Assembly: GCA_001577345.1 (NCBI GenBank)
Contig: LSLI01000001.1
Coordinates: 6,764 to 70,763, forward strand
Origin: Candidatus Gallionella acididurans
Lineage (GTDB): Bacteria; Pseudomonadota; Gammaproteobacteria; Burkholderiales; Gallionellaceae
Direction: 5' to 3'
DNA: 64,000 nucleotides
Each line of letters opens with the position of its first letter. The stretch's first letter is position 1. A program made the position numbers and the translations under genes. The notes under the pieces are model-generated. The model made no database searches, was not told the DNA's origin, and worked only from the letters and a program-made list of their open reading frames with translations. Positions 13,284-27,031 of the stretch are shown piece by piece.

Positions 13284-13488
13284 GGGCGGGCAACTATGCC
13301 TGCCATGAGCGTGACGGCTTGGTTCTTGGTGGTACTGATGCGCCCCTTATATGGCTGCCTCCGACACATTCCGGAATGTTGGATTTCACCAGAACAAGTT
13401 CAACATTCTTCTGGCGGGAGAATTCTTCTATTTTTGATTATTGAGGTTTTCATATTTGATGACAGTGACACCTCTTTCTGAATGCGGT

Positions 13489-13706
13489 AAGGGGAAATTA
13501 AAAAGCTGGCACATCATTCCGGCGAATTCGGGGAATCCAGAATGCCTCGTCATTGCAACAAGGCTTTAGCTGCGAGCGAAGCGCGGCAGGGGCGCAGCCG
13601 ACGTGGCAATCCAGATGGTTTAAAAAATGCATCTTGGTCTTGCTGGATTGCTTCACTTCGTTCGCAATGACGGCAAGGGTGTCGTGAATTATGGAAGTAT
13701 CAATAA
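13489..13706 (+). repeat. 218-bp composite palindromic element, copy 1 (direct repeat of 26738..26956)
   Basis: Nearly identical to 26738..26956. Contains a dRS3-like ATTCC..GGGAAT and the nested palindrome GTCATTGC..GGCAATCCAG..CTGGATTGC..GCAATGAC. Confidence 0.9.
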
Positions 13707-13721
13707 TTTTGGTACAAAATT

Positions 13722-16541
13722 CTAGATCAGCCTCGGTTCTTGCATAAACACGACAAACTGTTCAGGTGTCAATGGCTTGCTGAAATAGTAACCTTGGATT
13801 ATGTCGCATTGCCAAGAGCGTAGCAGGTCGAGTTGATCCAGCGTTTCAACACCTTCCGCTATTACAATTTTATGCAGCTTGTGTGCGAGAGTAATGATCA
13901 CCTCGACAATGGTACGTGAGTTGCTGTCGTTGATCATGCCTGTGATAAACGACATGTCAACTTTTATATAGTCAATAGGCAGCAGTCTCAGGTAAGACAT
14001 GGATGAATACCCGGTGCCAAAGTCGTCGACCGCCACTTTTATTCCCATTTGCCGCAACTCATGGAGTACAGCAATTGCTTCGCTGGTTTTGTCCATGAAG
14101 AGGCTTTCGGTGACTTCGATTTCCAATGCGCTGGGTGGCGTGGATGTTGTTTGAAGCGCATCTTTAATGATCTGGATCAGGTTGCCGCGCTGGAATTGCC
14201 GGACAGAAATGTTGATAGCAATGGGAGGGGCATTTACACCCTCTGAGCGCCACGTCGCATGCTGGGCACAGGCATCCCATATTACATTTCTGCCAATCTC
14301 ATCGATAAGCCCGATATCCTCGGCAATACCAATGAAAACGCCCGGATAAACCAGGCCACGAGTCGGGTGGTTCCACCGTACAAGAGCTTCTGCACCTGTG
14401 ATTTGACCGGTACGCAAGTCAATTTTTGGTTGATAGTGAAGAATGAACTCTTTGTGGAGCAAACCTTGCCGCATCTCACGTTCCAAGTTCATGTGCTCGA
14501 TTGCCTCAATATTCATCTGTTCTTCGAAATAGACGAATTTGCCGCGCCCGAGATCCTTGGCACGGTACATGGCCGTGTCGGCCTTTTTGAGCAGTTCTTC
14601 GCTGTCATTGCCGTCCATGGGCGAGATGGCGATACCGATGCTGGCACTGATATGGCTTTCTTGGCCTGCAACCATGAAAGGCTGAAAAAATGCTTGCAAG
14701 ATGTTTTCAGCCACCGTGCTGGCGCTTTGTATTCCTGAGATGGCGGGCAAGATAATTGCAAATTCGTCACCTCCGAGGCGTGCGATGGTATCGCTTTCGC
14801 GGCTGCATCGGCGTAGCCGCTGTGCAGCTTCCATCAACAACTCGTCACCCGCTGAGTGGCCGAAGGCGTCATTGATGCCTTTAAAGCGATCAAGATCAAT
14901 GAACAGTAAAGCCAGGTTCCGCCCCTCGCGCTGCGCGAAGGAAATTTCACTTGAAAGCCGTTCCTTGAACAAGAGACGGTTCGGCAGGCCAGTCAGATCA
15001 TCGTGGTGAGCCTGATAAATCAGCTTTTCGTCGCGTGCAACCGCAGACATGGCAACACCAATTCGATCGCCAAGGTCTCGCAGATGAATAAGCAAGCTTG
15101 GTGGCAAGTCCCTGGTGTTTTTGAATCCCATGCAAAGAAAGGCAATCAAGGTTCCGTCAGTGAGGATGGGCAGAATGAACAGTTGCCCAGCAATCTGAAA
15201 CCCGGGTTGGGGGATATAATTCAGAAGACTCTCGGAGTTATCCAACCAGAAGCCCTTGTCCCGTTCCGAAAATTCCTGCAACTTTTCAATATTCACCCTG
15301 ATCCGACTCATTTCCAAGTTGGGGTTGCTTGCAGCTTGCAGAGAATAGATTCGTGCTTCACCCGCCGCAGACTTCTCCAACTCAACGATACCTGCAAAGT
15401 TGGCATCAGTGAGCTTTCGGATGCGCACCAGCACGATGGTAAAAGCCGCGTCCATATTCAGATTTGATAAAATGACCTGGTCGATCTCGGAAAGAACCTT
15501 GAGGGTAGCGAGCTGGCTGCCAAGTCGCTCGGCCATATCGTTGAGAGAGGTTGCCAGCTCTCCGAATTCGTCGTGACCTGCCACAGTAACTCTGTGGTCG
15601 AAATCCTCGTAGGCAAAGCGCCGTGTACCATTGATGAGCCTCTCCAACGGTCCCAGGGTTCTGCGGATCTGGAGGGTGCTTAGCAGAGCCACCAGCAGCA
15701 GCGCCAGTACGATGACACCAATGAATATCCGACTGAATTTCTCAATTGGGCGCAAGACGCCCGCCATCGGTTGCACCGCAATTGCGGTCCAGTATGATCC
15801 GGAAAATTGGGGCTTTAGAAAAAGCTTCCATTGCCCCATGATCCAGGGCTCCTTGCTGATCTGCACGTGATAATCAGGCGAAGGGTCGGCAATCCTGCGT
15901 GCCAACATGGCGGATTCAGCTTGAAGTTCGGGCTGAGAACAGAACAGCATGACGCCGGGATCGGCAAACATGCACATACCGATCATGTACTGAGAGTCTT
16001 CTTCATCTCCCCAAATATTTGCTGGATCAAGTTCCGCGACCAGTGCGGAATTTCCATGCTTGCCTGCATCAATCATGTGCAGAAGCAGAATTCGTGGTGA
16101 CGAGCCTAAATCTGATTGGACGATAAGGACAGATTCGCCCTTCGCTAGGTGGGCGCGCTCTGACTCCCCAATTGCAGGCCAGGCGAGAGCCTTGCCTATA
16201 AGCGGAGTGCTCAGTGTGCCAGGTCCGATGACTGTTAAACCGGAATATAGCCCTTTCAGATTCTCCAAAACCTGGCTACTTGGCACTGAGCCGTCATTGC
16301 GCATGAACGTAGCGATTTCAGCGAGGTCGGTCTGCATCTGCATTAACCGTTGATCTACGGCCAAGGCGAAATCCTTACTCGCTACCTTCAATCTGGAAAT
16401 GGCTTGATCGGTAAAAATGCCGCGCACCTGAATGAAGGTAAGCACTACCATTACCATCATGGGAAAGAAAGCGGCAAGAACAAACATGGCAAAAATACGT
16501 CGCGCTATACTGCCTTGGAAGAATCTCTTTTTGATCCTCAT
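13722..16541 (-). CDS. Membrane-anchored sensor diguanylate cyclase/phosphodiesterase (periplasmic domain-HAMP-GAF-GGDEF-EAL)
   Basis: Two TM segments, HAMP (DEFGELATSLNDMA), HHDDLTGLPNR, RESD I-site, GGDEF, AEAL and DDFGTGYSS. Confidence 0.92.
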   Translation of the reverse strand: MRIKKRFFQGSIARRIFAMFVLAAFFPMMVMVVLTFIQVRGIFTDQAISRLKVASKDFALAVDQRLMQMQTDLAEIATFMRNDGSVPSSQVLENLKGLYSGLTVIGPGTLSTPLIGKALAWPAIGESERAHLAKGESVLIVQSDLGSSPRILLLHMIDAGKHGNSALVAELDPANIWGDEEDSQYMIGMCMFADPGVMLFCSQPELQAESAMLARRIADPSPDYHVQISKEPWIMGQWKLFLKPQFSGSYWTAIAVQPMAGVLRPIEKFSRIFIGVIVLALLLVALLSTLQIRRTLGPLERLINGTRRFAYEDFDHRVTVAGHDEFGELATSLNDMAERLGSQLATLKVLSEIDQVILSNLNMDAAFTIVLVRIRKLTDANFAGIVELEKSAAGEARIYSLQAASNPNLEMSRIRVNIEKLQEFSERDKGFWLDNSESLLNYIPQPGFQIAGQLFILPILTDGTLIAFLCMGFKNTRDLPPSLLIHLRDLGDRIGVAMSAVARDEKLIYQAHHDDLTGLPNRLLFKERLSSEISFAQREGRNLALLFIDLDRFKGINDAFGHSAGDELLMEAAQRLRRCSRESDTIARLGGDEFAIILPAISGIQSASTVAENILQAFFQPFMVAGQESHISASIGIAISPMDGNDSEELLKKADTAMYRAKDLGRGKFVYFEEQMNIEAIEHMNLEREMRQGLLHKEFILHYQPKIDLRTGQITGAEALVRWNHPTRGLVYPGVFIGIAEDIGLIDEIGRNVIWDACAQHATWRSEGVNAPPIAINISVRQFQRGNLIQIIKDALQTTSTPPSALEIEVTESLFMDKTSEAIAVLHELRQMGIKVAVDDFGTGYSSMSYLRLLPIDYIKVDMSFITGMINDSNSRTIVEVIITLAHKLHKIVIAEGVETLDQLDLLRSWQCDIIQGYYFSKPLTPEQFVVFMQEPRLI

Positions 16542-16554
16542 CGACAGCTCACAT

Positions 16555-17010
16555 TTAAAAGGTGGAAGCCAAACCCACAAACTGCCCGTTGTTCGCCCGG
16601 ATGATGTCGTCCTGGCTTACAACCGCAGTCAGCGGCGCAATACTCTTGCCGTCTTTGCCGATGCTGTAGAGATCGTAGTCGGAGTTGATCGGGTGCAGCG
16701 ATTTGTCCTTACGCACCAAGCTCATGCTTGGCCCGTTTAGCGGGATTACAAGGTACTGATAGGGATGTCTCCAAGGATCGAGTTTGTTCCCTGCGCCCAC
16801 ATCACTCAAGCTGTTGGGGAGGCTGCCGACATTATCAGCTTGGAATTGTGCAATCGCCACCTCTAAGGATTTGATGTCGCCAATCGCCTCAGCGACTTGT
16901 GCCTGATAATAATAGTTTTGATAAGAAGGAACCGCAATGGCTGTAAGAATTCCAATGCTGGCCATTACCAACAGTATTTCAATCAAGGTAATACCCGAGA
17001 GCCGTCTCAT
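16555..17010 (-). CDS. Type IV pilin/pseudopilin-like protein (prepilin N-terminal cleavage/methylation motif)
   Basis: MRRLSG|ITLIEILLVMASIGILTAIAVPSY with Glu at +5. GspG-like LDPWRHPYQY and YDLYSIGKDG. Alternative start at 17022. Confidence 0.88.
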   Translation of the reverse strand: MRRLSGITLIEILLVMASIGILTAIAVPSYQNYYYQAQVAEAIGDIKSLEVAIAQFQADNVGSLPNSLSDVGAGNKLDPWRHPYQYLVIPLNGPSMSLVRKDKSLHPINSDYDLYSIGKDGKSIAPLTAVVSQDDIIRANNGQFVGLASTF

Positions 17011-17051
17011 CAAAGCAGTCAAAAATGTATTAAATTGAGTAAGTGTATACG

Positions 17052-17067
17052 CGTAAAAATTTTCACA
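17052..17067. promoter_or_regulatory. Possible CRP/FNR-family binding site upstream of the pilin gene
   Basis: CGTAA-AAATTT-TCACA against the consensus TGTGA-N6-TCACA. A -10-like TACATT lies on the minus strand at 17024-17029. Confidence 0.35.
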
Positions 17068-17178
17068 TCATATTTACAGACAAAGTGTGCAATTCATACG
17101 ATAGACGGTGAAACAAGATACCTGACCGTCCGTTCTTGGCTGCGGTCATAGAACGAAATGTACCAGAGCTGAATTATT

Positions 17179-17670
17179 TTATGTTCGATTTTTCAACGAC
17201 AGGGTCAGCTTGAACCTGGCAACCGGCTCGTCACTCAGCGACGGCACGGTGGCAATGACGTCGATCTGTCTTTCGACTCTCTCATCGGAAACTGCAGCGA
17301 GTGCTACAAGTTCAGCGATCTCTTTCCCTTGGTCGCAAATGAAATCCACATCACCCTCGGCGCGCTTGAGAAATTCTGCCTGGAAGTCCTTGAACACCAT
17401 GGAGATGCGTGCGGGTTGTTGCCGGATCAGGTACATGGCGAATGCACCGGGCGCGCAGTCCGCTCCGATGCAGAGCGCACCGAAGTACATCGAGCCGAGG
17501 TGATTCCTTGTTCTGCGCCGCAAGGGTATGCGGACTACCATGCGTTCGGGCGATATCTCCCTCACCGAGACGCCGACATAGAACAGCAGGGGAATCCTGG
17601 TGAACCCGAACAGGCGCAGAGAGATGGTCTCCCGTGTTTTCTCGGCAATCAGTTTGGACAACCAGTTCAT
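17179..17670 (-). CDS. Hotdog-fold thioesterase-like protein (DUF4442/PaaI-like)
   Basis: RRTRNHLGSMYFGAL and FKDFQAEFLKRAEGDV. Confidence 0.8.
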   Translation of the reverse strand: MNWLSKLIAEKTRETISLRLFGFTRIPLLFYVGVSVREISPERMVVRIPLRRRTRNHLGSMYFGALCIGADCAPGAFAMYLIRQQPARISMVFKDFQAEFLKRAEGDVDFICDQGKEIAELVALAAVSDERVERQIDVIATVPSLSDEPVARFKLTLSLKNRT

Positions 17671-17767
17671 TGTGTTCACTCTAAACGCTCGCTAAATTGA
17701 GCGCAACATTTTCGGTTTGACATTGCCCCTTCTGGGCCATATAGTCCGTTCAGAACGAACGTTCTTT

Positions 17768-26732: not shown

Positions 26733-26737
26733 ACGGG

Positions 26738-26956
26738 AAGGGGAAATTAAAAAAACTGGCACGTCATTCCCGCGAATTCGGGGAATCCAGAATGCCTTGT
26801 CATTGCAACAAGGCTTCAGCTGCGAGCGAAGCGCGGCAGAGGCGTAGCCGACGCGGCAATCCAGATGGTTTAAAAAATGCATCCTGGTCTTGCTGGATTG
26901 CTTCACTTCGTTCGCAATGACGGCAACGGTGTCGTGAATTATGGAAGTATCAATAA
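26738..26956 (+). repeat. 219-bp composite palindromic element, copy 2
   Basis: Direct-orientation copy of 13489..13706 with few substitutions. Confidence 0.9.
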
Positions 26957-27031
26957 CTTGTTGTTTGCGCGCTGGTTGAATATTGTTTTTGCTGATAGAT
27001 TGCCGACCCCGGATATGCGCAGCCCAACTGT

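Follow-up and report, generated by a model that had tools for sequence, protein, structure and literature searches.

A pilin-like protein encoded beside a membrane sensor probably acts as an uncharacterised built-in partner of that sensor rather than as a pilus subunit

Signalling from a pilin to a sensor is known from two or three model systems, in every case as a secondary role of a structural pilin. In Caulobacter, the transmembrane (TM) helix of PilA binds TM1 of PleC and raises cyclic di-GMP (c-di-GMP) through PleD (Del Medico et al. 2020, PMC7196804). The periplasmic domain of PleC has been modelled on the dCache ligand-binding domain of the chemoreceptor Mlp37 (PMC7196804). In the PilA-PilS/PilR system of Pseudomonas aeruginosa, an intramembrane contact between pilin and sensor regulates the sensor output (Kilmury and Burrows 2016, as reported in PMC7196804). 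Small extracytoplasmic or single-pass proteins beside TM-HAMP sensors also control the output in YfiR/YfiB-YfiN (DgcN), in YycH/YycI-WalK, and in sensors fed by solute-binding proteins (PMC8050422). Pilin-to-sensor signalling and accessory proteins of sensors are thus both known principles. Here we analyse a pilin gene and the sensor gene directly downstream of it in a 64,000-nucleotide (nt) stretch of contig LSLI01000001.1 of Candidatus Gallionella acididurans (the window, whose positions serve as coordinates throughout). Rather than helping to build a pilus, the pilin-like protein probably belongs to the sensor as a built-in partner that has so far gone uncharacterised.

The pair shares with PilA-PleC-PleD an inner-membrane pilin, a two-TM sensor with a periplasmic dCache-type domain, and a link to c-di-GMP. 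However, PilA of Caulobacter is a structural Tad-type pilus subunit of 59 amino acids (aa) that lacks a globular head and whose gene lies with those of its machinery, while the window pilin, which is GspG-like, stands as an orphan, has a conserved head, and is paired with a sensor gene. PleD is a separate response regulator, whereas the enzyme domains here are fused to the sensor. PilA contacts TM1 of PleC with its N-terminal helix, and an analogous contact is only proposed here. As far as the account in PMC7196804 goes, PilS spans the membrane with six TM helices and lacks a periplasmic domain, its PilA is the major pilin, and its output is pilA transcription. Unlike the window pair, PilA and PilS do not form a mobile unit of two genes that are inherited together and whose outputs can be exchanged. 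The window pilin has no sequence or fold relation to YfiR/YfiB, YycH/YycI, or the solute-binding accessory proteins; an integrative model of WalK-YycH is one of the structures that matched the sensor part of a homologous pair (L025). We found no description of the pilin-sensor pair in full-text searches of open-access papers, and none in the literature of a prepilin-peptidase-type anchor with a pseudopilin fold serving as a sensor accessory.

The original prediction, made from the letters of the window, described a prepilin gene ending 13 nt before a gene for a TM-periplasmic-HAMP sensor with intact GGDEF, RxxD, and EAL motifs. The open reading frames (ORFs), Pfam, and the translation agree with it. 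PF00990 (GGDEF) matched the sensor at 4.6e-53, and RESDTIARLGGDEF holds the motif, with RESD (RxxD) five residues before GGDEF. PF00563 (EAL) matched at 2.6e-73, and the whole EAL motif set, EAL(V)R, N, ExE, DDFGTG, K, EGVE, and Q(G), could be read in the translation. With RESD-x5-GGDEF, EALVR, DDFGTGYSS, EGVE, and QGYYFSKP in place, the sensor appears to keep both of its catalytic sites, and its I-site, intact. The predicted domain list was right for HAMP, GGDEF, and EAL, which are called by Pfam, but GAF was not called by Pfam in the window sensor. Because Pfam calls GAF at the same position in homologs, we treat residues from about 345 to 505 as GAF-like.

The main evidence comes from the occurrence of the pair in other genomes. 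One genome per species was scanned, at least 574 genomes were found to encode a relative of the pilin, and the 80 best loci were analysed. They belong to Pseudomonadota (beta, gamma), Thermodesulfobacteriota, Myxococcota, Gemmatimonadota, Nitrospirota, Planctomycetota, Acidobacteriota, and Methylomirabilota. Cultured carriers include Acidovorax soli, Halopseudomonas salina, Gynuella sunshinyii, and Desulfopila. Every assessable pilin homolog at these loci, in at least seven phyla, adjoins a sensor with the same input module. The sensor starts within about 40 nt of the pilin stop at 76 of the 80 loci (at a few, up to 127 nt), spacers in the 76 other loci being mostly -4 to +40 nt, and the N-terminal 350 residues of the downstream genes (76 loci) are homologous to the window sensor. 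At two loci the contig ends right after the pilin. At L002 an unrelated minus-strand ORF follows the pilin, then the contig ends, and a divergent sensor lies 1.2 kb upstream; the sensors of L011, L020, and L021 are fragmented. Across at least seven phyla and at 25-50% identity, the gene order and spacing of the pair are kept, and both genes show purifying selection. The adjacency check proposed with the original prediction thus came out clearly: the homologs stand beside a homologous sensor input in essentially every locus and not in operons of type II secretion systems (T2SS) or type IV pili (T4P).

The phyletic distribution follows the same pattern. Among 121 genomes of the same family, the pilin occurs in 4, full-length input modules occur in the same 4, each directly after the pilin, and no genome has only one of the two. 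Among 401 genomes of the order, the pilin is found in 24, the input module in 26, and both in 23, always adjacent. One genome has the pilin alone and three have the sensor alone (one of these is a weak match and one lies at a contig end). Judged from gene order and distribution, chance adjacency is excluded for practical purposes, and genome comparison shows a self-contained mobile two-gene cassette in which the pilin is strictly co-inherited with the dCache-HAMP-GAF input module.

The output domains of the sensors are not constant. Seventy complete sensors comprised 44 with GGDEF-EAL, 15 with HD-GYP, and 11 histidine kinases. In ten non-GGDEF sensors, Pfam placed HAMP-GAF before either HD-GYP or (PAS-)HisKA-HATPase(-REC). 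The best tree of the input module required 9 changes of output class in all, and close sisters in it differ in output, such as an HD-GYP protein from Pirellulales beside a kinase from Desulfobacteraceae. Because the outputs swap while pilin and input module stay together, the pilin is tied to the input side, in line with the original prediction, and by this sequence comparison it co-evolves with the TM1-periplasmic-TM2-HAMP-GAF module and not with c-di-GMP enzymes as such. The original idea of a module of a pilin and a c-di-GMP enzyme therefore holds in that the pilin belongs to a sensor, but the link is to the input module.

The pilin has the features of a class III signal peptide. Its N-terminus (MRRLSG/ITLIEILLVMA, slash at the predicted cleavage site) consists of the short basic leader MRRLSG and a mature protein starting with ITLIE, with Gly at position -1, Glu at position +5 (E+5), and a hydrophobic N-terminal helix. 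E+5 is invariant in the alignment of relatives. Instead of Gly, 15 of 79 loci and 33 of 115 database matches have Ala at position -1, and E+5 is kept in these variants. From established work on prepilin peptidase, Ala at -1 is expected to reduce cleavage. The variants fit a protein that does not need to polymerise. Examples are ..QRA/FTLIE in Nitrosomonas and ..MAA/FTLVE in Burkholderiaceae, and the loci with Ala(-1) include L004, L005, L013, L025, L026, L034, L038, L044, L060, L065, L066, and L076.

The periplasmic head is conserved as well. Aligned relatives share a highly conserved C-terminal half, RKDKSLxPINSDYDLYSxGKDG...TA..SxDDxxRAxxGxFxGLAxx[FY], and the head has 29 invariant positions in 28 sequences with 49-90% identity to the window pilin. 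By this alignment, conservation of the head is far above the norm of filament-forming pilins. The 18-aa insertion that is specific to the family in comparison with GspG is LVIPLNGPSMSLVRKDKS, and the C-terminal tail is IIRANNGQFVGLASTF, with an aromatic last residue. The last residue is Phe or Tyr in 68 of the 80 loci, and 9 further loci end with [FY]DP. Among 263 database relatives, 232 have a Phe/Tyr end. The conserved GxFxGLAxx[FY] hairpin (16558-16605) closes with a free Phe/Tyr carboxylate, which suggests recognition of the C-terminus itself. At one locus from a metagenome-assembled genome (MAG) of Gemmatimonadaceae (L042:8001-8432), there is an in-frame stop nine codons before the usual pilin end (..RANNGG*VGPASGY); either the sequence is in error here or the tail is cut short. 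Relatives at 50-60% identity to the pilin number in the hundreds, and the family forms 788 representative clusters at 50% identity (E <= 1e-30). Both pilin and sensor are single-copy in the genome of the window.

With GspG/PulG/EpsG/XcpT (TIGR01710, PF08334) the pilin shares the prepilin leader, E+5, and DPWxxPYxY, and it resembles them in a probable alpha-beta fold and in Asp positions like those of calcium ligands. It differs by the 18-aa insertion before strand 2, a longer putative calcium loop, and a C-terminal hairpin ending in Phe/Tyr. Its match to T2SSG in Pfam was marginal only, and the nearest NCBIfam model was GspG (TIGR01710) at 47.9 bits, below the cut-off of 88.85, while the genuine GspG of the same genome is on another contig and scored 193.6 bits. 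We therefore rejected the assignment of the pilin as GspG: it is below the equivalog cut-off, it has the insertion and the tail, and it is never in a gsp operon, as no GspE/F/H-K/L/M/D gene was found within 5 kb at the 80 loci or on the window's contig. There is no named Pfam or NCBIfam family for this pilin subfamily or for the sensor's periplasmic domain. A profile search of the PDB with the pilin gave one full-length match, PulG (5wda), and the other matches cover the N-terminal helix only. When the pilin was aligned with the GspG of its own genome, the 18-residue insertion was placed after DPWxxPYQYL, and the pilin extended beyond the GspG C-terminus. In GspG, the calcium site lies in the beta2-beta3 loop and involves D117 and D124/D125 in PulG/OutG (PMC13081927). 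D120 and D134/D135 of the pilin are invariant and match this ligand pattern in sequence.

The AlphaFold model of the window pilin had a pLDDT (predicted local distance difference test) of 72.7, and its best Foldseek matches were the XcpG filament, EpsG, PulG, and GspG. Their E-values were weak because confidence in the head was low, the insertion and tail being below 50 (residues 94-109, 128-135, and 140-149). A better model came from the L025 homologs, in which the pilin and the N-terminus of its own sensor form an in-frame pair that was joined by reading the stop codon as Gly; the alignment was padded with unpaired pilin and sensor rows. In this joined model, the insertion and tail reached a pLDDT of 82-95, and the tail forms two extra strands. 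The rise bears on a partnership of pilin and sensor, in a suggestive way only.

The same model indicates what the sensor periplasmic domain is. The N-terminus of the L025 sensor was modelled with a pLDDT of 89.3 and starts with a 70-residue helix, which takes in the cytoplasmic stub, TM1, and the periplasmic helix, followed by two PDC modules, TM2, and HAMP. Foldseek matched it to the dCache domains of KinD, PctA/B/C, CtaA, DctB, Mlp24/37, and TlpC. The periplasmic domain also had a weak profile match to KinD (4jgo), and Pfam dCache_1 was not reached by sequence. On the basis of the model, it is assigned to the dCache fold. Conserved motifs of the domain are few and scattered: YLWG, Cys190/Cys201, and W238/FL..F....W. 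The best-conserved segments of the input module are the cytoplasmic stub with TM1, and HAMP.

Pilus or secretion machinery is not associated with the pair. Clustering of neighbours at the 80 loci found no T2SS or T4P gene and no other conserved neighbour within 5 kb. The original prediction that no assembly machinery or other pilin is adjacent was right, and the window's contig as a whole has no assembly ATPase, prepilin peptidase, or other pilin. Elsewhere, the genome encodes one prepilin peptidase (Peptidase_A24), four GspE/PilB-class ATPases, and retraction-type ATPases. Of the 42 other carriers searched, 41 also have a prepilin peptidase gene. GspL was above its cut-off in 19 of these 42 and had no match in 15, including all five Nitrosomonas MAGs and Ca. 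Ferrigenium, though most carriers without a match are MAGs and the absences are thus soft. Since GspL is absent from many carriers, these searches argue that the module does not require a T2SS, and the earlier suggestion that the pilin reports the state of the T2SS is weakened.

We propose that the pilin is a dedicated membrane-anchored accessory subunit (co-sensor) of the dCache-HAMP-GAF receptor and not a filament subunit, and we give this a probability of about 0.5. Pilin and sensor would be made from one transcript, and the pilin would be inserted into the inner membrane, trimmed by the general prepilin peptidase in most members of the family, and remain anchored in the membrane. Its N-terminal helix with the invariant E+5 might pack on the stub and TM1 of the sensor, while the GspG-like head, with the insertion, the calcium-site-like Asp pattern, and the Phe/Tyr-COOH hairpin, would touch the dCache domain in the periplasm. 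The state of the complex, with a partner or ligand bound or not, would be relayed through TM2-HAMP-GAF and would set c-di-GMP synthesis (GGDEF) against hydrolysis (EAL) here, and drive HD-GYP or kinase outputs in other lineages. At somewhat less than even odds, we tentatively suggest that the pilin is a pseudopilin fold taken over for good as a receptor subunit, membrane-anchored and non-polymerising, that its GspG-derived head is the actual signal-recognition element of a widespread family of dCache-HAMP-GAF sensors, and that the two-gene cassette moves between phyla while its outputs are exchanged. Recognition by the head would perhaps use the calcium site, or the C-terminal aromatic carboxylate might dock in the dCache pocket as a tethered ligand.

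Several points weigh against a co-sensor. Co-transcription is inferred from the spacing only; the pilin-sensor contact, the touching surfaces, and the signal are inferred too. The contrast in pLDDT is suggestive only because both the sequence and the alignment depth differ between the two models. Inter-protein covariation (normalised mutual information with average product correction, 68 pairs) gave no usable enrichment and is uninformative because the top pairs were in cytoplasmic HAMP/GAF columns, which is phylogenetic noise. Across the family, identity is about 50% for the pilin head but only about 25% for the sensor periplasmic domain, and the head may therefore bind something other than dCache. 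Moreover, E+5, the calcium-site aspartates, and the prepilin peptidase of nearly all carriers would be equally expected of a polymerising pseudopilin.

In the main rival explanation, the pilin would be a low-abundance subunit that T4P or T2SS machinery draws out of the membrane into filaments, and the sensor would read the remaining membrane pool by helix-helix contact. Extension and retraction of filaments would then be converted to c-di-GMP or kinase output, as with PilS and PleC. Besides the precedents of PilA-PleC and PilA-PilS, the canonical N-terminal helix with its invariant E+5, the apparently retained GspG fold and calcium-site-like Asp pattern, the nearly universal prepilin peptidase, and the assembly and retraction ATPases of the genome are all in its favour. 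However, the module travels without linked machinery and GspL is missing in many carriers, and Ala(-1), found in 20-29% of members, should impair the cleavage that assembly requires. A strongly conserved head with family-specific elements is not needed for such a reporter, and the tight coupling to the sensor gene suggests low, stoichiometric expression. Because of the conserved head, Ala(-1), the tight coupling to the sensor, and the lack of linked machinery, we favour a static co-sensor, and we regard a reporter of the pilin pool as possible but rather unlikely.

The pilin might also be output or cargo, that is, a specialised minor pseudopilin that is co-expressed with a regulator of pilus or secretion behaviour without contacting the sensor. 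It is known that c-di-GMP controls T4P and MSHA ATPases, and c-di-GMP enzymes (GGDEF-EAL or HD-GYP) make up 59 of the 70 outputs. However, the input module is the constant partner, whereas the outputs switch between c-di-GMP enzymes and kinases. It is also the part with which the pilin co-occurs across genomes, and the pair is accompanied by no further pilin gene or gene for machinery; we consider cargo improbable. We give hardly any credit to the view that the adjacency is meaningless, with both genes hitch-hiking on one mobile segment, or that the pilin ORF is not expressed. The pair was horizontally transferred in this genome and a dispersed repeat abuts it, but hitch-hiking would not account for the same pair, order, and spacing in at least seven phyla at 25-50% identity, for purifying selection, or for a pilin family of 788 clusters at the above threshold.

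With relatives in at least 574 species genomes, the pilins form a distinct and sizeable family, in which a protein with the pilin fold apparently has no other role than to partner a sensor. If this is true, they would be a new class of accessory subunit for dCache receptors, and prepilin peptidase would gain a role in signal transduction. It would also account for one way in which input reaches c-di-GMP and some two-component systems in groups that matter to the environment and have few genetic models, such as Gallionellaceae, Nitrosomonas, Desulfobacterota, and Gemmatimonadota. Being small and self-contained, the module could be tested directly in a heterologous host. It should be of interest to the fields of c-di-GMP, two-component, and type IV filament systems.

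The features of the locus are collected in Table 1. The likely pilin start is the ATG at 17010 and the alternative is the TTG at 17022, both by reading of the sequence; the stop is TAA (16555-16557).

Table 1. Features of the pilin-sensor locus and its surroundings (window coordinates)
Feature	Position	Strand	Basis
Prepilin gene, 151 aa	16555..17010	-	ORF list and translation; ORF span 16555-17022
Spacer of 13 nt, pilin stop to sensor ATG	16542..16554	-	Sequence
Sensor, 939 aa, TM1-dCache-TM2-HAMP-GAF-like-GGDEF-EAL	13722..16541	-	ATG at 16541; Pfam and translation
Cytoplasmic stub xVARRxxxxF and TM1, residues 1-39, P27 nearly invariant	16425..16541	-	Alignment
Periplasmic dCache (double PDC) domain, residues about 40-268	15738..16424	-	Profile, homolog model
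TM2 (about 269-291) and HAMP (292-340)	15522..15737	-	Pfam for HAMP
GAF-like segment, residues about 345-505	15027..15509	-	GAF called at the same position in homologs
GGDEF domain (511-667), GGDEF motif and RxxD I-site (RESD)	14541..15011	-	Pfam, translation
EAL domain (688-923), EALVR, DDFGTG, EGVE, and QG motifs	13773..14480	-	Pfam, translation
AT-rich region upstream of the pilin	17011..17178	-	Sequence
DUF4442/hotdog-fold gene between pilin and radical-SAM gene	17179-17679	-	Synteny
Low-GC segment, 4.4 kb, between addA stop and radical-SAM start	13284..17716	.	GC, synteny

The block was originally noted as AT-rich, and its GC content is indeed 0.46-0.55 over 13.0-17.5 kb, compared with 0.60-0.67 in the flanks. 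In two genomes of the same genus without the segment, about 80-95 bp separate addA from the radical-SAM gene, and in a third (L104) only the DUF4442 gene lies between them. Because same-genus genomes lack the pair at this site and the segment is low in GC, the pair is a horizontally acquired insertion in this genome. The nearest relatives are in a Gallionella MAG (78% identity for the pilin and 73% for the sensor N-terminus) and in Ca. Ferrigenium. The DUF4442 gene was rejected as a third gene of the module, as it is not conserved at other loci and occurs without the pair in L104.

About 110 nt upstream of the pilin start (17011-17120) are conserved in the Gallionella MAG (L001:810-931) and may be the module's own promoter or regulatory region. 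Promoter and terminator scans gave nothing above shuffled expectation and no convincing sigma-70 or sigma-54 site. A sigma-54-like TGGTAC-N5-GTTC was rejected because it lacks the GC element.

Some loci have additional genes. At 11 loci (L018:8466-8891, L051:8439-8888, L035, L064, and 7 more), mostly from Desulfobacterota with PAS-kinase-REC outputs, a membrane-anchored protein of about 150 aa is encoded between pilin and sensor. It has an N-terminal anchor and no Pfam or NCBIfam match, and the kinase variant may include it as a third component. Duplicated forms were also seen (L024, L074; G380, G461, G532, G567), either as sensor-pilin-sensor or as two tandem pilins before one sensor.

Directly 3' of the window sensor there is an intergenic repeat of about 270 nt (13436-13709), with a second copy of 224 nt at 93% identity (26736-26959). 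Dozens of full or partial copies are found on many contigs of the same genome. It was rejected as a marker of c-di-GMP loci because of this dispersal, and by its distribution it is classed as a dispersed element resembling miniature inverted-repeat transposable elements (MITE) or repetitive extragenic palindromes (REP).

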